From Escherichia coli (GTDB taxonomy: Bacteria; Pseudomonadota; Gammaproteobacteria; Enterobacterales; Enterobacteriaceae), in the NCBI RefSeq assembly GCF_044324785.1, contig NZ_CP172127.1: 64,000 bases of DNA; one strand, given 5' to 3'. A program made the position numbers and the translations under genes. The notes beneath the pieces were generated by a model. That model searched no databases, was not told where the DNA came from, and saw nothing but the letters and a program-made list of their open reading frames with translations. This document shows, one piece after another, positions 7,186 to 18,969 of the stretch; within the stretch, counting starts at the first letter, position 1; every line of letters begins with the position of its first letter.

Positions 7186-8036
7186 AAGGGAGATGAAAAA
7201 GGCAATAGCAGAACTGAGTGACAGTGAAACCATTCTGGCGTACAGGGTTGGATGGTGAAACTGATAAAAAACCCCCTCTGAAATTCTGTCAGAGGGGCTA
7301 GTCAATAAGGGAATAATATTCAACATGAAGATGTCTTCTGGGAATGTTTATATAGCAAATGCTTTCACTCCGGTAATTAATTTCCGTGATTAACTGCTTT
7401 CGATCAATAAAGGAATTGCAAAAGTGTGATCTTGTTCACGACATCGTGGATAATAATATGCCTGATGTCTGAATCCGGAAACAGTGCTCTGGCGGGTTTC
7501 ATGTGAAGTTGACGGATAAAAAATCCGCACGACCAGACAGACGTGCGGTTTACGAAATTCGTAACAAGAGGCTTTTCTACGGATCACGTGGTGCGTGCCA
7601 CGTGAAATTTTTGTAGCGCAAAATGTGTGATGTGTAAATACAAGGAAGGAAAAAAGTTAAATCGGTGGAAGTCCATACCTGCCACGTGTACGTCTGCATT
7701 CCTCGTTTTGAACAGAATTCTCACCAGACATCGTGAATTTCTCATTCAATCATCAGAGATATTAACCAGGATTTTTATTGTTTTGTGATATCAGCAGTGC
7801 AGGTATACAGACATTAAAGTAATCAGGTTTATTATAACCACCTTTACAAAGTTGTATGTGTTTATAATTTAAGGATTTTAATGCCAGTCGTTTTCTGCTG
7901 CTTAAATTGAGGTCGCATATTATACACAATAATATTCCTGGCATTATTAAATTAATAAAAGAGGATTCTTATCACTGTATTTTTGCTCCGCACTACCGTT
8001 CTGGCTGGTGAAGTAATAATACAGGAGAATAACAGA

Positions 8037-9233
<1,197 letters not shown>

Positions 9234-9294: not shown

Positions 9295-9750
9295 ATGCTG
9301 GATATAATCCTGGCGACGAGAGATATTTATTTTGAAAAAGCCCTGCGAGAGATATTTGGAACCGTAAGCAGTCGAATCAGATATATAGAAGATGCCATAT
9401 CAGACAGAAGAAGGGTGCAGTCAGGCAGGTCATTCAGATATTATTTTGTATTCTGTGATGATGAGTATACAGATATTGTTCGTATTCTTTTTACCGGAGA
9501 GGCCTGCTGTATTCTGAATAAGTCGATGCTGAATCTGAGAGCGGCCGGAGGTGTGTTGACGCTGGAAGAGCGCAGAGCGGTACTGAACCGGTATTACAGA
9601 GGTTTAAGTATTGCGGAGATTACAGAAGAGACGGGGCAGAATGACAAGACGGTATACGGTCATCTTCGTCGTGCACTGCAGCGGTCTGGATTCCGGAAGG
9701 GGCGTTTTATAAAGGGGAGAGAAGCGGCGGGGGATTCAGGTGTTGAATAA
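9295..9750 (+). CDS. Small HTH transcriptional regulator (sigma-70 region-4/LuxR-type HTH at C-terminus)
   Basis: 151 aa; C-terminal LTLEERRAVLNRYYRGLSIAEITEETGQNDKTVYGHLRRAL resembles a region-4-type HTH; immediately downstream of the adhesin. Confidence 0.5.
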   Translation: MLDIILATRDIYFEKALREIFGTVSSRIRYIEDAISDRRRVQSGRSFRYYFVFCDDEYTDIVRILFTGEACCILNKSMLNLRAAGGVLTLEERRAVLNRYYRGLSIAEITEETGQNDKTVYGHLRRALQRSGFRKGRFIKGREAAGDSGVE

Positions 9751-10106: not shown

Positions 10107-10445
10107 TCATTCGGCCGATGAACAGTTGCTTAAGACAGGATTATCATTCCCTTCCACCAGATTGGCTTTTTTACCTTTTGTGTACAGTTTATATGAGTAT
10201 CTTTTATTGATGGCTTCGTAATTGGCTCCGGAGGCCATTTTCATTAGCTGCATAGGTATCATCTCATCCATCTGATTAATCACTGCATATGAGTTCCCAG
10301 CAGTGGTGTTGATATAGACCACCTCCATTGTCTTATTTCCATTACAGACATAAGCTGTTTTTGAGATTTCTTTTGTGGCAGCGGAGGATACCATACTGTT
10401 GCTAACAAGAATGAGTGCAAGGACGGGAGAAGAGTATTTTTTCAT
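10107..10445 (-). CDS. MliC/PliC-family lysozyme inhibitor (secreted)
   Basis: 112 aa with signal peptide; two conserved Cys and spacing (YVCNGNK...SYAVINQ...ASGANYEA...NPVLSNC) parallel E. coli MliC. Confidence 0.6.
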   Translation of the reverse strand: MKKYSSPVLALILVSNSMVSSAATKEISKTAYVCNGNKTMEVVYINTTAGNSYAVINQMDEMIPMQLMKMASGANYEAINKRYSYKLYTKGKKANLVEGNDNPVLSNCSSAE

Positions 10446-10895
10446 AATAACTCCTTCTGTAGGTTAAAAAAACAGGTGTTTGATCAGAATTATATTAATA
10501 ATTCATTCATCAGAAAAAAAGGTTTTTGTTATAGCAATAATAATGAGCACAATTGCTTGTGAAACTGGTGCCATTTTACGGTTGCTTAGGAGTGCTGAAA
10601 CTGTGCCTGTTAGGGCACAGCTGGTGTGGTGGTCTCAGTACGGAACAATTTGAAAACCAGAACATCACTTAGGCTTGTGTCCACATTACATGGGGTAGGA
10701 TCAGTATTCCTCTATCAGGGGTAACTCGACCAGGCTGGCTGAGCTCTCGTTTTACTGCGAGTATCTATGCCCATTCAGCCAGTGTCAGCGCGAGAGTGTT
10801 AAATTCCGAGCGATTATCCATGCGCAGCATGACCGGATAACCATGATTTAGCCCCTGCCGAGCTAATCGGGAACTGCATAGCACTCTCAATATGG

Positions 10896-10919
10896 AATAA
10901 GCGATAATTATCGCTTATT
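10896..10919. terminator. Hairpin downstream of nanE-like gene (AATAAGCGATAATTATCGCTTATT)
   Basis: Perfect 12-bp inverted repeat just 3' of the minus-strand operon. Confidence 0.5.
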
Positions 10920-10949
10920 CCCAGCAAAATATCATGCCTCATCGGTGCT

Positions 10950-11639
10950 TTACGAGGCGATCGCTGCAATAAAGCGTGTCGTTATCTGCTGCGGACGAGT
11001 GATTGCCCCCCCAACCACCACGGTATGAGCGCCTAATGTCAGGCAACGTGCGGCGCACTCCGGGGTGTCGACATTCCCTTCCGCCACGACCGGAACGCTG
11101 ACCGCTTTCAGGACCTCACGTAAGAATCCACAGTCATTTTCCGCCAGCACATGCCTGGCAGTTTCTGCGGTATAGCCGTAGAGCGTAGTGCCCACACAGT
11201 CAAAACCCAGACGTTCAGCTGTCACTGCCTCTTCTACTGTTGCTATATCTGCCATCAGAAGTATGGACGGGTAGCGAGCGCGGATCTGCGTGACCAGTTC
11301 TTCCAGCGTCTGACCACCAGGGCGCGGGCGCGCAGTAGCATCCAGGGCAATAATTTCCGGCTCAACGGTCATCAGCTCATCCACTTCCCGGAGAGTGGCC
11401 GTGATAAACACCTCACTGCCAGGGTAATCGCGTTTGATAATCCCTATCATCGGAAGGGAGACAATCTCTTTGATAGCACTAATATCCGCCACGCTGTTGG
11501 CACGGATACCTGCAGCACCACCTTGTGCTGCCGCCAGCGCCATACGTGACATAATAAACGGACTATGTAGAGGCTCATTTTCCAGAGCCTGACAGGAGAC
11601 GATTAATTTACCTTTCAGGGAATCCAGTACAGTTTTCAT
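10950..11639 (-). CDS. nanE: N-acetylmannosamine-6-phosphate 2-epimerase (NanE family)
   Basis: 229 aa; N-terminal [20 protein letters not shown] and overall TIM-barrel NanE-like sequence; start overlaps stop of upstream PTS gene. Confidence 0.85.
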
Positions 11640-13195
11640 TACGATAAAATCTCTTCGACTTCGTTTTTAATGATGGTGACATGAGGGCCATAAATCACCT
11701 GAACGCCGTTGCCGCGAATAATCACGCCACGCGCTCCGGCCACTTTCAGCGCAGCTTCATCTACCTTACTGCTCTCTTTAACCGTCACGCGCAGGCGCGT
11801 GGCGCAACAGTCCACCTCTTCCAGATTCTCTTTGCCTCCCAGCCCGGCAATGACTGCCGCTGCGCGTTCACTCTGAGGCTGGCCGGATTCAACCTGGGTT
11901 ACGTTCTCACGCCCCGGCGTCAGCCAGCCAAAGCGGTTAATCAAATAGCGGAAAGTAAAGTAGTAAAGGAAGAACCACGGTATTCCCACTATGGGGACAT
12001 ACATCCAGTTTGTTTTAGCTTCCCCCTGCAACACGCCGAAGAGAAGGAAATCGATAAGCCCGCCCGAAAAGGTTTGCCCAATAGTGATATGTAAAATATG
12101 GGCGACCATAAACGCCAGACCATCGAAGAAGGCGTGAATTACGTATAATACGGGCGCGACAAACAGGAAGGAGAACTCAACAGGCTCAGTGATTCCCGTC
12201 AGGAAAGAGGTCAGGGCTGCCGACAAAAGTAGTCCGGCGACAACCTTTCTATTCTCCGGCTTTGCAGTATGGTACATTGCCAGACATGCGCCAAGCAGGC
12301 CAAACATCATGGTGATAAAGCGCCCGGACATAAAGCGAGCGGTACCCGCGTAGAACTGCTGCGTATTCGGATCGGCAAGTTGGGCAAAGAAAATCCGCTG
12401 CGTACCTTCAACCAACTGGCCGTTGACGATTTCACTGCCGCCCAGCGCCGTCGTCCAGAACGGCAAATAAAAGATATGGTGTAAACCCAGTGGACCGAGC
12501 ATACGCAGGATGAAGCCGTACAACAGCGTCCCCAGATAGCCCGTCGCATCCACCAGGTCGCCCAGTCCAAAAATGAGTTTCTGGAAATGCGGCCACACCA
12601 CCGTCATAACCGCACCCACTACTATCGCGGCAAGGGAGCTGATAATGGGTACAAAACGAGAACCACTAAAAAAACCGAGAAACTGAGGTAGTGAGACTTT
12701 ATTGAAACGGCTATGTAAAGTGCAGGTGACGAGACCAATCACCACCCCACCAAACACACCAGTTTCCAGTGTCTGAATACCAAGCGTCATCCCCTGGCCA
12801 ACTGAAGCGGGGTTCTTGTGCGCCAGCGTTCCGTTGAGCGTTAATAAGGCGTTGATGGTGGCATTCATCACCAGAAACGCCAGCAATGACGCAAGCCCGG
12901 CAGTGCCTTTATCCGATTTCGCCAGCCCCACGGCGACGCCGACTGCAAAGAGTACCGACAGGTTGGCAAACACAATAGAACCTGCGCTGGTCATGATTGT
13001 GAATATTGCCTGCAACCAGTCGGCATCTAAAAACGGATAAGCCGTCAACGTGTTTGGATTTGACAACGCGCCACCAATCCCTAATAACAGCCCTGCTGCG
13101 GGCAATACCGCAATCGGCAGCATGAAGGATTTTCCGAACCGCTGCGCTTTTTCAAACCATCCCCCCGATGAAGCGCCGCTAAACATTTGCATCAT
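11639..13195 (-). CDS. PTS EIICB component (glucose/maltose/N-acetylglucosamine family)
   Basis: 518 aa; N-terminal EIIC membrane domain with GITEPxEF motif, C-terminal EIIB domain with CATRLR active-site Cys. Confidence 0.85.
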
Positions 13196-13360
13196 TTTAT
13201 CATCTCCTCGATTTTTGATGAAAATTTTTACTATAATTATTCTTATAAATAAAAATCACCATCAAAATCTAAGAAGTCGATCATACTTTTTTAAAATGTC
13301 TGGCATCAATCCCCTCCTTTCCGTCACACTATCAACAGATAAACGCATTAAGGATTTTAC

Positions 13361-14185
13361 ATGTCAGAAAATGAAAACCTGCTGCTGAGATTGCGCCAGA
13401 GCGTTGATGGATATAGCCGAACACAACAGAAGCTGGGAGAGTTTGTACTTAGCGATCCGGCAAAAGTTGTCTACCTGACGATTACCGAACTTGCGCGTGA
13501 AAGCGGCACCAGCGAGGCTAGCGTCACACGTCTGTGCCGAACGCTTGGGTGTAAGGGCTATAACGAATTCAAAATGGCGCTGGCACTCGATCTCCGACAA
13601 GTACAGTTTGTAGAGCACGGCGGTGATGAGATTGACAATGTGGTCAATGAATCCGTGCAAGCAATACAGGACACAGCAAAATTACTCGACAGAGCCTTGC
13701 TGGAAGCAGCCGCGCTTGCACTGCATCAGGCTCAGTCAGTGCAGATTTATGGCGTAGCAGCCAGTGCCATTCTGGGGGAGTATTTACATTATAAACTCCT
13801 GCGTCTGGGGAAACCCGCACAATTGTTCAGCGATATGCATCGTGCTGCCATGAACGCCACAACACTTAGTAAAAACACGTTCGTGGTGGCGATTTCCAGT
13901 TCTGGATCCACGCGCGATCTGCTGCATGTCGTAAAACTAGCGCGTAAGCAAGGTGTGCGTGTACTGGCGCTGAGTAATACACCGCGCAGTCCGTTAGCTT
14001 CGCTGAGTGATATTCAACTGGTCGCGGCCAAACCGGAAGGACCCTTGAGTGCCGGCGCGCTGACTGCCAAAGTGGGAGTGATGCTGTTGGTAGAGCTACT
14101 CACCACATCGCTGATTGCGCTGGATGACCAGTACAGCGAGGTGAGCCAGAAAACAGCCAGCGCGACCCTACCGCTACTGCTTTAA
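13361..14185 (+). CDS. RpiR/MurR-family transcriptional regulator (HTH plus SIS domain)
   Basis: 274 aa; N-terminal HTH (TITELARESGTSEASVTRLCRTLG) and C-terminal SIS sugar-phosphate-binding domain; divergent from the PTS-nanE operon. Confidence 0.85.
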   Translation: MSENENLLLRLRQSVDGYSRTQQKLGEFVLSDPAKVVYLTITELARESGTSEASVTRLCRTLGCKGYNEFKMALALDLRQVQFVEHGGDEIDNVVNESVQAIQDTAKLLDRALLEAAALALHQAQSVQIYGVAASAILGEYLHYKLLRLGKPAQLFSDMHRAAMNATTLSKNTFVVAISSSGSTRDLLHVVKLARKQGVRVLALSNTPRSPLASLSDIQLVAAKPEGPLSAGALTAKVGVMLLVELLTTSLIALDDQYSEVSQKTASATLPLLL

Positions 14186-14276
14186 AGACATAAAAAACCG
14201 CCGAAGCGCTGGGTGCTCCCCATGAATCAGTGATAATAAACCAACATCATATTCTGGTAGGTTCTGGCGAGGTGAT

Positions 14277-14307
14277 TAAAAACGGTGCTCAGCACCGTTC
14301 GTTTTTA
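14277..14307. terminator. Bidirectional rho-independent terminator
   Basis: Hairpin AACGGTGCT/AGCACCGTT flanked by A-tract upstream and T-tract downstream, between convergent genes. Confidence 0.7.
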
Positions 14308-14341
14308 AATTAGCGAGGAGTATCGTAAGATGCTCTTCCCC

Positions 14342-15685
14342 CTACTTCAGAAAATCCTTCACATCCAGTAGAATAAACTCGTTGTCATCCGCCATATTAG
14401 GCCAGCGGCTGGAGGAAAACGGGAAGTTATTATCGTTGCCTACGATGATGTGGTTAGTGTCAACCACATCCACGTTCTCGATGGTGAAGAACGGGAAGGT
14501 CAGCACACCGTCGTTCAGCGGCTTGCGTGCCAGCTTGTTCGGATCCTGAATCTTCATCAGGTCAATATAGCCCAGTTTTTCGACAGGTTTTCCGACGTTA
14601 GTGTCCGAGAAAGCAATTTTATACACCCGTTTGAACCTGGCTACTTGACTGAAGCAGTTGTTGGTCGGCGCGCCGGCGACGCAGGCTTTATCCGCCGTGC
14701 CTTCGCCGTTATCACGCTCGATCACCAGTCCGTGGGTATCATCTATCATATTGAAGTCGCCGATGGCGTTCTGGTTGTCTTCCAGCACGTACTGCCAGCT
14801 GCGACCAGTCCAGGCCTGCTGTTTGGCATCGAACTCCAGCACACGCAGGTAGCGTTTTCCGTCAACGTTCTCGAACTGCTCACCGTCCCACAATGCCCCT
14901 TCCAGCAGCGGATACAGCTTACTGCCGTCCGGCGAGATGGCCATGCCTTCAAAGCCTTTGGAACGCGCCACCTGGAAGTTCAGCTTACCGTCCGGAGCGC
15001 TAGGTAGAGTCAGCGTCGGGTTGTCCGGCGATTTAACCACCTTACCGTCCACTTCTGTGTCGAACACCGCCAGCACCTTGCCGTTCAGGTCGGTCTTGAT
15101 CAGGTAAGGACCGAACTCATCACCGATCCATAAGGCATCGTCGGAAAACTGGAAGCTTTCCGGATCAAAATCGCTGCCGGTCAGATAGCGTAGTTCGGTG
15201 CTCTCGTTGATGATGTGGAACGGCACCTTTTTATCCGGATCATGCAGGAACAGCGTCTTCAGCGGTACTACCGAGCCGTCTTTGAAATCTATCTTGTATT
15301 GGTTGAGGTACAGCATGGCGTCCGGGGAGTTGGCTTTGCTGCCGAAGCCATTGTCAGTCAGCACCCAATAGGTACCGTCGGGCATGTGTTTGATACCTGA
15401 GTGGCCCTGCAACGGCTGACCATTGATCGGCAGGCTGAGTCCTGTCAGGCGTTCTGCGGATTTGCCCGCCACGCTGCCCAGCTCGGTGACGCGTTTGCCG
15501 CTGGTGTATTTGCCGCTCTGTTGCAAATCGCCCGGCGCATCCTTCGGTGTTGAAACAGCGGATTTTGCCGGCAGAATTGCATGCCCGGCCAGCGTTGCCT
15601 GCACCGGCTGCGCTTTGGCCCACAGGTTGGCGCTCAGAGCCATGCAGCCAACCAGTATAGCCAGCCGGATTTTGGAGTTGTGCAT
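14342..15685 (-). CDS. Secreted protein, esterase-like/phytase-like (beta-propeller) family
   Basis: 447 aa with N-terminal signal peptide; repeated motifs (DNGFG, DEFGP) recalled from the phytase-like family; function uncertain. Confidence 0.5.
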   Translation of the reverse strand: MHNSKIRLAILVGCMALSANLWAKAQPVQATLAGHAILPAKSAVSTPKDAPGDLQQSGKYTSGKRVTELGSVAGKSAERLTGLSLPINGQPLQGHSGIKHMPDGTYWVLTDNGFGSKANSPDAMLYLNQYKIDFKDGSVVPLKTLFLHDPDKKVPFHIINESTELRYLTGSDFDPESFQFSDDALWIGDEFGPYLIKTDLNGKVLAVFDTEVDGKVVKSPDNPTLTLPSAPDGKLNFQVARSKGFEGMAISPDGSKLYPLLEGALWDGEQFENVDGKRYLRVLEFDAKQQAWTGRSWQYVLEDNQNAIGDFNMIDDTHGLVIERDNGEGTADKACVAGAPTNNCFSQVARFKRVYKIAFSDTNVGKPVEKLGYIDLMKIQDPNKLARKPLNDGVLTFPFFTIENVDVVDTNHIIVGNDNNFPFSSSRWPNMADDNEFILLDVKDFLK

Positions 15686-16179
15686 GTCATACTCTCCTTT
15701 CGTTGTTATCGCCCAGAAGTAAAACTAACGTCATTGTAGGGAGCAGAAATGACAGAAATATTATGATTACGGTAGGGATAGCCGTTGCCGGCTTCCCCGC
15801 CATGTCAACGCCGGTATTTATGGTTTCTGTTTGCTTTTCTGTAAAAATAAAGGGGAGAGACGACGGTACTATAAACAACCATGATGAATCTCATCTATTC
15901 GGCCCAGATGAAAGACGCGCGTGAGGCTCTTGTTCGTTAAGCGGATACGTATATCCTGTACAATAATCAGATATACCTCACAGGGTCTAACACTTTATCA
16001 TCAACGAGTTGCAGATCAGATAGTCATACGGTTGCTGCGTGCTTTAGCTGGCTGAATACAGCCTGAAATCATCACCGTAATGACATGATGCCCAGCACAG
16101 CCTTACCTTTCTGGCGGCGATGGCCACAACAGCGCGTCAGTATTCTCTGCGTTCAACCAGTGAACAGACCCAACGACTG

Positions 16180-17010
16180 AATGAGTCAGTCCTTTTCTCA
16201 GCACCAATCAGTACTGAACGAGCCCCCTGAACCAGAAGCATTCGCAGATACGAATCACCGGCTTTTGTTATCCTGCCCAGCTTCGACATTCAGCCGCTGC
16301 TGTATTGTGATAGCGTCAGCCCAGCCAGGCTGCCAGTTGCCGTCCCTTTTTAAAATCATGTGCATTACCGATACAGGCAACCAGCGCACAGGCTGTTGTG
16401 GGACCAACTCCTTTTAGCTCCATCAGCTGTTTAATACGGATATCATCCCTTGCAGCCTCATGAAGACGGTGGTCATGAGACGATATGAGTTCATTTTACT
16501 CTGACAGTTCGCACAACAAACGGATGAAGGGTCATTCCACTGCCCCTGGGCAGTATTCCCTGCTGGATTTTACGCACGTGCCTTATCCCCACAGGCAGCA
16601 GCAGACCAAATTCACTCAACAGCCCCCGGATTTCATTACGCAACGCCGTTCGCTCGCGGATGATTCTGGCCCGGACCCGGTATTCTTCCTGTAACGTCTG
16701 CTGGGATTCCGATATGAAAACAACAAATCGCATGCCGGGCCTGCTGACGGCCTCACAGATGGCAGCTGCATTATTAGCGTCGTTTTTGTTACCTTTGAGA
16801 TAAGATTTGACAAGTTTCTACGGAATAATGCGCACGGTAGGCCCCATACGGAATGAGTTCCCGTGCCCAGAATGGGAAGAGCCACAGACTTCGATGCTGA
16901 TGAGGCAGGGAGAAAGCCCGGAGAAAAACGTCATCATGTGGGGAGGGCTCAGCGTTTTTCTCCGTACCACTATTCATTGTGATCAACGCCGTGGATTTGA
17001 AAAACATTTT
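16180..17010 (-). mobile_element. IS110-family transposase remnant (frameshifted)
   Basis: Minus-strand translations ...NKNDANNAAAICEAVSRPGMRFVVFISESQQ...ALRNEIRGLLSEFGL and ...ELKGVGPTTACALVACIGNAHDFKKGRQLAAWLGL match IS110-family motifs, split across frames. Confidence 0.6.
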
Positions 17011-17179
17011 TCGGCAAGATCGAAACCAATACGATTAATATTCATGACTGACTTCTCCACCAGGGAACTGGGTACATCTCAGTCTGGAACGTTGATGCCG
17101 TAAGGAGGAAGATGTCAATCACATCGGCCTACACGCGATGTTAGCTCAGATAGGCGAAACGTATCCGACATTACACTGG

Positions 17180-18496
17180 TTAAGACTTCGTCGATTTCTC
17201 AAAGCGGCGTAGTAACTGATTCCCACGCTCAACGGCGGTATCCAGCGCCTGCTGTGGCGTCTTCTTACCGGTCCACACGCTCTCAAGCTCTTCATCCACA
17301 ATCGCTCTGATCTGCGGCATGTTGCCCAGACGTAGTCCTTTGGTGAACGGTAACGACGGTTTGTTCAGCATCTGACGTGTCGCGATATCCGCCCCTGGGT
17401 TTTTCTCGTAAAAGCCCTGCTCACGGGTCAGGTCATACGCCGCTTTGGTGATTGGCAGATAACCGGTTTTCTGGTGCCACTCGGCAGCATTTTCTGGCTT
17501 CGCGAGGAAGTCGAGGAACTTCGCCACGCCGGTATACGTTTCTTTATCTTTGCCCTGCATCACCCACAGGCTGGCTCCGCCGATAATGGCGTTTTGTGGT
17601 GCATCTTTCGCGTCAGCGTCGTAAGGCATCATGCCTACGCCGTAGTTGAATTTGGCGTACTCGCGAATGCTGGCAAGAGAACCAGAAGAGGCAGTCGTCA
17701 TTGCGCAATCACCGTTATAGAACTTCTCGGTGGATTCATCCTTACGCCCGACGTAGCTGAAATCGCCTTTCTTGTTCATCTCTTCGAGCATGGCGATGTG
17801 TTTCACCTGCTCCGGCTTGTTGAACTCCAGCACCGCATCTGTGCCGTCAAAGCCGTTGTTTTTGCTGGCAAACGGCAGACCGTTCCAGGCGCTAAAGTTT
17901 TCCAGTTGGATCCAGCCCTGCCAGCCGCTGGAGTAGCCGCACTTCATACCGGAGGCTTTCAGTTTCGCGGCATAGTCCGCCAGATCCTGCCAGGTTTTCG
18001 GCGGCTGTTCCGGGTCTAATCCTGCTTTCTTGAAAGCATCTTTGTTGTAATAGAGAACAGGAGTCGAGCTGTTGAACGGCTGGGAGAGTAAGTGTCCGGT
18101 TTTACTGTCGGAGTAGTAGCCTGAAACCGTCGGCACAAACTGCGACTCATCAAAGTTAATCCCCGCCTCTTTAAACACGTCATACACCGGTTTAATGGCT
18201 TTCGACGCCATCATGGTGGCGGTGCCAACTTCATAAACCTGCAAAATAGCCGGAGCGTTACCGGTACGAAATGCTGCGATCCCCGCACTTAAACTCTCTT
18301 CGTAGTTGCCTTTATAAGTCGGTATAATTTTGTAATCCGGGTTTTCGGCGTTAAAACGTTGGACCAGAGAATTCACCTCTTTACCCAGTTCCCCTTCCAT
18401 AGAGTGCCAGAACGGAATGGTCGTCACTGCCTGTGCATTCCCCATTAACGTCAGTCCGAGCACTAGTGCTGAAGCTGTATAATGTAACGGTTTCAT
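17180..18496 (-). CDS. ugpB: sn-glycerol-3-phosphate ABC transporter periplasmic binding protein UgpB (orphan copy)
   Basis: 438 aa with signal peptide; sequence matches my recollection of E. coli UgpB along its length; no ugpAEC downstream, IS remnants on both sides. Confidence 0.8.
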
Positions 18497-18633
18497 CGTT
18501 TATCTCTCTTGCTTGTTGTACCTGATGAGCGAATTCACACGTTTCATGCTCGTGGGATTAAATATCATGCCCGAATTGCAGAAAAATAACTTTTTTATTA
18601 CATGTGTTAGACAGTAAAGTGTTAGAAAGATGA

Positions 18634-18969
18634 CAGAGCAGTGACGGCACAGGTGAGACGTGGTGGATTGAATTTGATCCTGCTGTTGACAGTGAAATCC
18701 GCAAGACATGTCCGGCAGTGATCGTGAGCAATGACGCAGCAAACAGGAACCTCGCTCGAGTAGTCGTCGTTCCTCTGACCAGTAACACAGAGCGAGTGTA
18801 TCCAAGTGAGGCTGTTGTGACCGTAGGTGTCAGAGCAGCAAAGCGATTGTAGAGCAGATTATGGCGGCGGATAAGTCCTGTCTCAAAACACATATTGGCT
18901 CGTTGTCCAAAGCAGATATGTTGTCTGTTGAGGACGCAATCAAGATCCATCTTGGTTTACTGCGGTAAC
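18634..18969 (+). pseudogene. MazF/PemK-family toxin pseudogene (no in-frame start, internal frameshift)
   Basis: Translation ...GETWWIEFDPAVDSEIRKTCPAVIVSNDAANRNLARVVVVPLTSNTERVYPSEAVV aligns with the PemK/MazF core; C-terminal part is in another frame; no antitoxin ORF upstream. Confidence 0.5.

Follow-up and report, generated by a model that had tools for sequence, protein, structure and literature searches.

In Vibrio vulnificus, the RpiR-family regulator NanR, which has an HTH_6 and a SIS domain, is encoded divergently beside an operon containing nanE, the gene for N-acetylmannosamine-6-phosphate (ManNAc-6-P) 2-epimerase. Its regulon covers full sialic-acid catabolism (nanA, a TRAP transporter, and nanK). 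In Escherichia coli K-12, the described route for N-acetylmannosamine (ManNAc) runs through the Man-family phosphotransferase system (PTS) permease ManXYZ, which yields ManNAc-6-P; NanE then forms N-acetylglucosamine 6-phosphate (GlcNAc-6-P), and NagA and NagB follow (Plumbridge & Vimr 1999, cited in PMC10667646 and PMC10519446). The K-12 nanE gene lies in nanATEK, under a GntR-type NanR. The E. coli MurR-MurP-MurQ system combines an RpiR/SIS sugar-6-phosphate sensor, a Glc-family EIIBC permease that lacks a IIA domain and uses EIIA-Glc, and one enzyme leading to GlcNAc-6-P. Lastly, Streptococcus pneumoniae (nanE-SP1684, the latter called ‘NanP’) and Listeria (lmo2795-nanE) carry a gene for a Glc-family or other PTS permease beside nanE under RpiR control, and SP1684 has no IIA domain (PMC3302838, PMC10667646). 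Here we analyze a 64,000-nt stretch of E. coli DNA (contig NZ_CP172127.1; hereafter the window), in which genes for an RpiR-type regulator, a Glc-family PTS permease and NanE form a triad beside a gene for a phytase-like protein. We put at roughly 0.6 the probability that the triad imports and catabolizes free ManNAc and is induced through its NanR-like regulator.

Gene content and comparison with described systems

An initial annotation of this region had proposed a NanE-like epimerase and a PTS permease under a divergent RpiR regulator, beside a convergent secreted phytase-like gene. Open reading frame (ORF) coordinates, together with Pfam and NCBIfam profiles, bore out the content and orientation of all four genes. 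All four ORFs agreed exactly in coordinates and strand, among them nanE (10950–11639, minus strand; 229 aa). Immediately 5′ of it is the gene for the Glc-family permease EIICB (11639–13195, minus strand; 518 aa, without a IIA domain). The regulator gene (13361–14185, plus strand; 274 aa) is transcribed away from the PTS-nanE pair, from which 165 bp of spacer separate it; the phytase-like gene (14342–15685, minus strand; 447 aa) converges on the regulator gene. The best description is of two unrelated cargo modules placed back to back, the triad and the phytase-like gene, which have nothing in common but a spacer with a probable two-way terminator.

The triad resembles each of the described systems in part. 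Its regulator has the same HTH_6 and SIS domains, SSSGST loop and histidine as V. vulnificus NanR, with 44% identity over the full length, and it too is divergent beside nanE; however, its predicted targets are just the PTS permease gene and nanE. The K-12 route has the same chemistry as that proposed here, whereas the parts differ: a Glc-family EIICB, a NanE that is 41% identical, and an RpiR regulator. The mur system follows the same logic but is not orthologous to the triad, whose permease scored 36 bits against a MurP cutoff of 516 and whose regulator scored 85 bits against a MurR cutoff of 408, and which has no gene for the MurQ etherase. The pneumococcal and Listeria operons are larger, with ABC transporters and lyase, kinase or ROK proteins; moreover, their regulators are activators and their permeases lack a ManNAc phenotype. 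On these profile scores and alignments, we consider the triad orthologous to neither the mur unit nor the K-12 ManXYZ-plus-NanE route.

The same comparisons disposed of two familiar identities. The canonical E. coli nan operon (nanR[GntR]-nanATEK-yhcH) was rejected, as the cluster lacks nanA, nanT and nanK and the triad occurs in 8.6% of genomes. The mur operon (murR-murQP) was rejected on the missing MurQ etherase gene and on MurP and MurR model scores far under their cutoffs. Furthermore, strain CLSC36, which carries an identical island over this region, has a canonical nanR-nanATEK-nanQ operon approximately 500 kb away. The separateness from the nan and mur operons that the initial annotation had suggested was therefore upheld.

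The NanE epimerase

The epimerase matched the Pfam NanE family (PF04131) at E = 1.3e-69 (233.8 bits, cutoff 27) and the NCBIfam NanE subfamily model NF002231 at 316.1 bits (cutoff 189). Residue roles described for NanE enzymes include a catalytic lysine and glutamate, an arginine–aspartate salt bridge, substrate-binding glutamine and arginine residues, and two signature motifs (PMC8482478). We aligned the island protein with Staphylococcus aureus NanE (SaNanE), to which it is 61.7% identical. SaNanE residues Gln11, Arg40, Lys63, Asp124, Glu180 and Arg208 corresponded to Q17, R46, K69, D131, E187 and R215, all of them kept. Also retained were Y156, the tyrosine that packs on the N-acetyl group, and the phosphate cradle residues G188, N189, G210 and G211, along with both signature motifs (LPMIGIIKR and VGGAITR). 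The claim that this gene encodes an epimerase with NanE catalytic residues was borne out at every documented catalytic and substrate-contacting position.

The closest relatives of the protein point to a Gram-positive-like lineage. Matches in S. aureus, Fusobacterium and Clostridium perfringens reached E values of ~1e-74 to 1e-79 and Salmonella NanE just 8e-38, and identity to the canonical E. coli NanE of CLSC36 was 41%. The solved S. aureus and C. perfringens enzymes (PDB 6VVA and 4UTT) have the same active-site constellation and both motifs, although their hosts and gene contexts differ from those of the island NanE, known here from its sequence. We concluded from the alignments that the island NanE is, by prediction, catalytically complete and a member of a lineage of biochemically characterized enzymes. 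A database protein labeled ‘Cichorium endivia’ proved to be a PTS_EIIC-NanE-PTS_EIIB fusion that is 87% identical to our query; contamination of the plant assembly by bacterial DNA, or a faulty annotation, almost certainly accounts for it.

The regulator and the divergent control region

Pfam placed an HTH_6 domain (9e-19) and a SIS domain (3e-19) in the regulator. Its best solved relative was PDB 4IVN, V. vulnificus NanR (E = 1.5e-68; 44.3% identity over 271 residues, 3–273); the runner-up RpiR structure reached 5e-32 and MurR ~1e-17. According to PMC12713135, PMC9177960 and PMC11014249, the 4IVN protein was crystallized with ManNAc-6-P and acts as a repressor that binds DNA less strongly when this ligand is present. 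A Ser/Thr phosphate-binding loop and a histidine of the SIS pocket are conserved features of such proteins (PMC9177960, PMC11014249), and both aligned: AISSSGSTRD with AVSSSGSTKE for the phosphate loop, and FSDMHRAAM with FEDTHLAAM around the histidine. Architecture and similarity along the full length place the regulator close to V. vulnificus NanR, and we class it as NanR-type.

The divergent control region (13196–13360) contains a candidate operator, an 18-nt inverted repeat with arms at 13213–13230 and 13250–13267 (TTTTGATGAAAATTTTTA / TAAAAATCACCATCAAAA) that are 83% complementary. The core of the repeat (TGATGAAAAT...ATTTTnATCA) is kept in both E. coli alleles, Serratia and Cronobacter, and conservation of the repeat extends to four genera. 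The repeat overlaps a predicted sigma-70 promoter of PTS-nanE on the minus strand (13236–13265; TTGATG-18-AATAAT), which matched 9 of 12 consensus positions in our scan.

The permease and the case for ManNAc

The permease satisfied the sequence definition of a Glc-family EIICB, with an EIIC domain (PF02378, 1e-88) followed by an EIIB domain (PF00367, 2e-15), a phosphorylatable cysteine (C464) in the CxTRLR-type motif CATRLR, and a GITE motif (GITEP at 334). Structures of E. coli PtsG aligned with it from end to end (E = 1e-107). Its stop codon overlaps the start codon of nanE (TAATG), and from this arrangement the two genes are predicted to be translationally coupled. By analogy with PtsG and other Glc-family permeases that have no IIA domain, the permease should draw its phosphate from EIIA-Glc; cross-activation of such permeases by EIIA has been noted (PMC3302838).

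No substrate could be read from the specificity models, all of which scored below cutoff: MalX (482 of 665 bits), NagE (445 of 553), PtsG (421 of 647), MurP (36 of 516) and TIGR02002 (587.3 of 591.8). The sole NCBIfam model passed was the generic subfamily-domain model TIGR00852 (293.1 bits, cutoff 291.1). The RefSeq name ‘maltose/glucose-specific’ probably reflects this generic match, and we rejected ‘maltose/glucose permease’ as a meaningful name on that ground. In the literature we searched, no study establishing the substrate was found. We infer ManNAc solely from the linkage of the permease gene to nanE and to the gene for a NanR-type regulator.

The route that we consider most likely would run as follows. 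The EIICB would take up free ManNAc and phosphorylate it on Cys464 to give ManNAc-6-P, with phosphate supplied by the host EI, HPr and EIIA-Glc (Crr), the last of these making up for the IIA domain that the module lacks. The co-translated NanE would convert ManNAc-6-P to GlcNAc-6-P, which host NagA and NagB would carry on to fructose-6-phosphate. Acting at the conserved inverted repeat, the NanR-type regulator would repress the PTS-nanE promoter, and binding of ManNAc-6-P to its SIS domain would make it release the DNA. In this way the module would provide a transporter and an epimerase for ManNAc that are both inducible. The only known reaction of NanE requires ManNAc-6-P, and because the module has neither kinase nor lyase, the PTS is the one source of that compound within it. 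For E. coli that lacks the module, inefficient transport is reported to prevent growth on ManNAc, with ManXYZ as the entry route (PMC10519446 and PMC10667646, each after Plumbridge & Vimr 1999). A dedicated, self-induced transporter–epimerase unit would fill this gap in transport.

Cronobacter offers a natural comparison. All seven species have the 229-aa nanE. In six of them nanAKT is missing and sialic acid cannot be used; C. sakazakii has a nanAKT cluster without a nanE of its own, yet grows on sialic acid (PMC3716653). This pattern fits a working epimerase induced by ManNAc-6-P. It also bears on an alternative in which the substrate of the permease is a different hexose or hexosamine (glucose, glucosamine or GlcNAc), and NanE and the regulator form only an accessory sialic-acid arm for ManNAc-6-P made by the host NanA and NanK. 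The triad-type nanE of C. sakazakii evidently serves sialic-acid catabolism (PMC3716653), the top profile match of our permease was to a glucose-type EIIBC, and the phenotype of pneumococcal SP1684 concerned glucosamine and not ManNAc (PMC3302838). However, the triad is retained in those Cronobacter species that lack nanAKT and are unable to use sialic acid (PMC3716653), and E. coli already has an inducible nanE in nanATEK. A glucose or GlcNAc permease needs no strict, translationally coupled linkage to nanE across phyla, and the score falls under the curated PtsG, NagE and MalX cutoffs. We regard this alternative as rather unlikely, though the most serious of those considered.

Several observations weigh against the ManNAc route. 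Among specificity models the permease scored best on a glucose-type one (TIGR02002), and it fell just short of that cutoff. For the pneumococcal PTS SP1684, which adjoins nanE, the only phenotype was a mild one concerning glucosamine (PMC3302838). The Listeria operon has a PTS that is dispensable for growth on ManNAc and an RpiR regulator that acts as an activator (PMC10667646). Promoter-like hits in the control region were no commoner than in shuffled sequence, and both the promoter and the operator are predictions. Finally, we found no paper that cites the E. coli triad protein accessions, and the orthologue group is known from sequence. The amino-sugar uptake route proposed by the initial annotation nevertheless drew support, and was strengthened by the NanR-like regulator and the conserved rpiR-PTS-nanE linkage, the permease specificity being the part that we predict from that linkage. 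We give slightly better than even odds to the narrower statement, in which the triad serves ManNAc specifically, as a dedicated route through a Glc-family PTS, and would let ~9% of E. coli strains grow on free ManNAc.

Origin and conservation of the triad

The segment holding the whole triad (window 10864–14208) aligned by blastn with the Citrobacter locus eno-[rpiR<>PTS-nanE]-queE (L017, 5986–9333) at 89.3% identity over 3348 nt. The homology ends 15 nt inside a queE remnant on one side and 23 nt beyond the rpiR stop codon on the other. The first 15 nt of queE remain at 10864–10878, downstream of nanE. This scar shows an origin at a chromosomal eno-queE site of the kind seen in Citrobacter and Cronobacter, where the triad occupies a core-genome position between the two genes. 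From the alignment and its endpoints, we concluded that the E. coli triad is a captured piece of a Citrobacter-like chromosome.

Intact rpiR-PTS-nanE triads were found in Citrobacter, Cronobacter, Serratia, Peribacillus and Selenomonas, and the phytase-like gene was a neighbor in none of them; this picture of gene neighborhoods rests on seven genera. The order is rpiR <> PTS-nanE in Serratia and Cronobacter and PTS-nanE-rpiR in Peribacillus. Selenomonas has nagB-nagA-PTS-nanE-yhcH-ROK-rpiR, a complete path to fructose-6-phosphate. Orthologues of the permease were 96% identical in Citrobacter. Identity was 84–89% for those of Raoultella, Salmonella and Cronobacter, ~80% for those of Serratia and Pantoea, and no lower than ~75% for those of Selenomonas, Aeromonas and Peribacillus.

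Among 5426 complete E. coli genomes, 468 (8.6%) carried the triad at near full length, in two alleles. The first, present in 147 genomes, is at least 99% identical to the window; the second, present in 310 genomes, O104:H4 strain HUSEC2011 among them, is ~96.5% identical. All three genes were intact in both alleles and in Citrobacter, with ratios of nonsynonymous to synonymous substitution (dN/dS) of 0.04–0.20 overall, 0.09–0.15 for nanE, and 0.04–0.09 for the permease gene. We concluded that the triad is under purifying selection.

These data speak to the view that the triad is silent, hitch-hiking cargo without function in E. coli. In its favor, the triad sits among insertion sequence (IS) elements and pseudogenes in a mosaic island, and IS1-bounded deletions have removed it from some strains, A23 among them. 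Nonetheless, the three ORFs stayed intact in both E. coli alleles, which are ~4% diverged and between which dN/dS was 0.09–0.20; every catalytic and phosphorylation motif was retained; and near full-length copies were present in 468 genomes. We judge silent cargo improbable.

The adjoining phytase-like gene

The second module consists of one gene whose product matched the phytase-like family PF13449 over the entire profile (positions 1–284 of 284; E = 5.4e-61; 207.4 bits, cutoff 27.6). The profile search thus confirmed the phytase-like membership suggested by the initial annotation. That the protein is secreted is supported by an N-terminal Sec-type signal (MHNSKIRLAILVGCMALSANLWA/KA), which was read by eye only. 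We rejected the label beta-propeller phytase (PF02333), or true phytase, since Pfam returned PF13449 and not PF02333. Approximately half of the protein aligned with the Bacillus Ca2+-dependent beta-propeller phytase (PF02333; PDB 1POO) and with the C-terminal domain of E. coli YjiK (PDB 3QQZ), at 10–12% identity. We concluded that the protein has a beta-propeller fold; a PDB sequence search with it returned no relative, and no close relative has a solved structure. Some sources annotate the PF13449 family as phosphodiesterases. Homologues ~70% identical were found in Serratia, Providencia, Pectobacterium, Halotalea, Polaromonas, Cupriavidus and Azospirillum, and at the loci sampled outside E. 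coli the gene stood alone amid unrelated surroundings, with neither nanE nor a PTS gene close by in any of them. The ORF with 79 nt of upstream sequence (window 14345–15764) was 78% identical to a Serratia fonticola locus.

Between the two modules is a 136-bp spacer (14209–14344), common to both E. coli alleles and without a match in the Citrobacter or Serratia donor-like loci. It contains a GC-rich hairpin, AACGGTGC-TCA-GCACCGTT (14281–14299), flanked by an A-run and a T-run and able to fold on both strands. The plus-strand form (−11.3 kcal/mol) is followed by CGUUUUU and the minus-strand form (−12.5 kcal/mol) by UUUUUAAUC; none of 200 shuffled sequences was as stable on the minus strand. The hairpin is a probable bidirectional intrinsic terminator, so that the shared terminator proposed by the initial annotation remains plausible, in this case by pattern and folding energy.

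The distribution of the phytase-like gene showed how the two modules came to be separated in some strains. The gene was found in 228 E. coli genomes, and the whole 6.5-kb stretch with both modules in only 147 of the 5426. Strain HUSEC2011 has the triad without the phytase-like gene, and there the spacer and a degraded hairpin are kept to within 4 nt of the phytase-like stop codon, where an IS1 end begins. Strain A23 has the phytase-like gene, an IS110 pseudogene and ugpB without the triad; its IS1 end lies ~36 nt past the site of the rpiR stop codon and is followed by intact sequence into the phytase-like gene. On the structure of these junctions, both strains derive by IS1-bounded deletion from the triad-plus-phytase arrangement, which therefore predates the split between the E. 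coli alleles. A23 also has, nearby, a second and divergent PF13449 paralogue (L003, 6120–7478) with a better two-half-site Pho box (TGTCAT-TTTC-CTGACAC).

The age of the adjacency lends something to the idea that the two modules are coupled. In that case the exported beta-propeller protein would be a phosphodiesterase, releasing ManNAc or ManNAc-phosphate from glycopolymers of the host or of microbes (ManNAc-phosphate capsules or teichoic-acid linkage units, for instance), and the PTS would import what is released, making a two-step scavenging system on an island of extraintestinal pathogenic E. coli (ExPEC). The modules are adjacent and have one terminator in common, the HUSEC2011 spacer reaches 4 nt from the phytase-like stop codon, and the family is a phosphodiesterase family by some annotations. 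Yet linkage of the two was seen in no other genus sampled, their donor-like origins differ, and each survives without the other in E. coli. The other neighbors of the phytase-like gene are phosphate-scavenging genes, ugpB and a PhoX gene, and Pho-box-like sites lie upstream of it. We consider coupling very improbable, the least credible of the alternatives, and concluded that the phytase-like gene is a mere neighbor of the triad, a module of other origin without conserved linkage to it.

Probable phosphate control of the phytase-like gene

Upstream of the phytase-like gene, ~70 nt before its ATG, is a Pho-box-like element on the minus strand (15733–15766): TCATAAT-ATTT-CTGTCAT (15766–15749), then 10 nt, then TACAAT (15738–15733). 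It therefore presents a perfect CTGTCAT 10 nt before a TACAAT. A 93% identical copy of the gene on a plasmid from a pigeon isolate (L004, 6744–8723) retains the element, loses homology upstream of it, and adjoins a gene for a PhoX-family phosphatase. Using a half-site scan with a measured background of 0.022 hits per 200 nt and the ugpB promoter as positive control, we found sites matching at least 11 of 14 positions at −68 to −84 in four of six phytase-like loci, including those of Providencia and S. fonticola. A PF13449 member was among the genes most strongly induced under phosphate limitation in Nodularia (PMC9846622).

Two results count against phosphate control. The window site itself scored just 10 of 14, and a strict consensus search (CTGTCATAWAWCTGTCAY, up to 3 mismatches) matched nothing in the window, the ugpB promoter included; the half-site scan superseded this search. 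On balance, the upstream elements suggest that the gene probably belongs to the Pho regulon, and its product is probably a Sec-exported, Pho-regulated phosphoesterase.

The genes farther upstream are in keeping with this. An IS110-family transposase pseudogene (16044–17045, minus strand; RefSeq annotation of the identical CLSC36 sequence) separates the phytase-like gene from an orphan second copy of ugpB, which encodes a glycerol-3-phosphate-binding protein (17180–18496, minus strand). This ugpB has its own Pho-box promoter (CTGTCATCTTTCTAACAC, 18636–18619), with hits at −151 and −140, and is 96.6% identical in amino acids and 93% in nucleotides to the core ugpB of CLSC36. The homology is confined to 17125–18657, no ugpAECQ follows, and in A23 the orphan ugpB travels with the phytase-like gene. 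Together, the two genes fit a small phosphate-scavenging patch.

The island and its surroundings

Window positions 1–34518 were 99.7–99.9% identical to the selC-associated island of CLSC36, an ExPEC cystitis isolate. On that island are ireA, another PTS accompanied by a split transketolase, a YadA-like adhesin, numerous IS elements and a gene for a P4-type integrase. This near-identity confirmed the earlier placement of the locus inside an island, which by sequence comparison is one of the ExPEC/avian pathogenic E. coli (APEC) type.

The second carbohydrate module, at ~1.5–6.8 kb, comprises a LacI-family regulator, ascorbate-family PTS IIA, IIB and IIC components, and a transketolase split into two genes, one for its N-terminal and one for its C-terminal half. 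In HUSEC2011, a comparable LacI and PTS IIA/IIB/IIC cluster lies a few kb from the triad, with no transketolase in the stretch examined. The tkt1/RpiR/PTS island of strain BEN2908 is a different locus. The YadA-like trimeric autotransporter gene (7758–9233; start at 7983 in the ORF list) contains a perfect tandem repeat of CTCAGG (7.7 copies, 8107–8152) that encodes AQ repeats. Near 8586–8665 the window gene is 279 nt shorter than that of CLSC36, a multiple of three, and this in-frame difference suggests variation in stalk length between strains. Just downstream of the triad are a small gene for a protein with a sigma-70 region-4-like helix-turn-helix (9295–9750, plus strand) and a gene for a c-type lysozyme inhibitor of the MliC/PliC family (10107–10445, minus strand; NF010363, 156 bits, cutoff 127).

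Past ~34.5 kb, within the P4-type integrase gene, the window no longer matches the selC junction of CLSC36. From ~35.7 kb onward in the remaining part (34519–64000), it has the backbone of an SPI-7/PAPI-1-type integrative element (dnaB-PI, ParB, STY4528-family and topoisomerase III genes; GC 0.55–0.61), and the best match to this part, at 99.5%, was from a chicken isolate. No complete E. coli genome held more than 80% of window 30000–54000 in one place. The island and the integrative element seem to be placed in tandem, a layout rare among the genomes compared. ARAGORN detected no tRNA gene in the whole window, and Rfam no RNA family in 7–20 kb at E up to 0.1.

Significance

The genes of this locus are routinely annotated and of a known type of architecture, and both modules are plausible but fairly ordinary cargo; neither the ManNAc module nor the PF13449 protein overturns current understanding. 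Searches by RefSeq protein accession and by island or APEC terms returned no study of the module, and the triad orthologue group is experimentally uncharacterized in the literature searched. The PF13449 protein, ~70% identical across beta- and gamma-proteobacteria and with no solved or characterized close relative, is a reasonable target for enzymology.

ManNAc is a sugar derived from sialic acid, on which E. coli without the triad reportedly cannot grow. If the triad confers growth on it, the locus would be a simple example of metabolic gain carried by a virulence island, that is, a ready-made unit of sensor, transporter and enzyme whose source was the core chromosome of a relative resembling Citrobacter. 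The module is, besides, widespread and strongly conserved, with the permease ~75% identical between Enterobacterales and members of the Bacillota, and assignment of its substrate would annotate thousands of genes.

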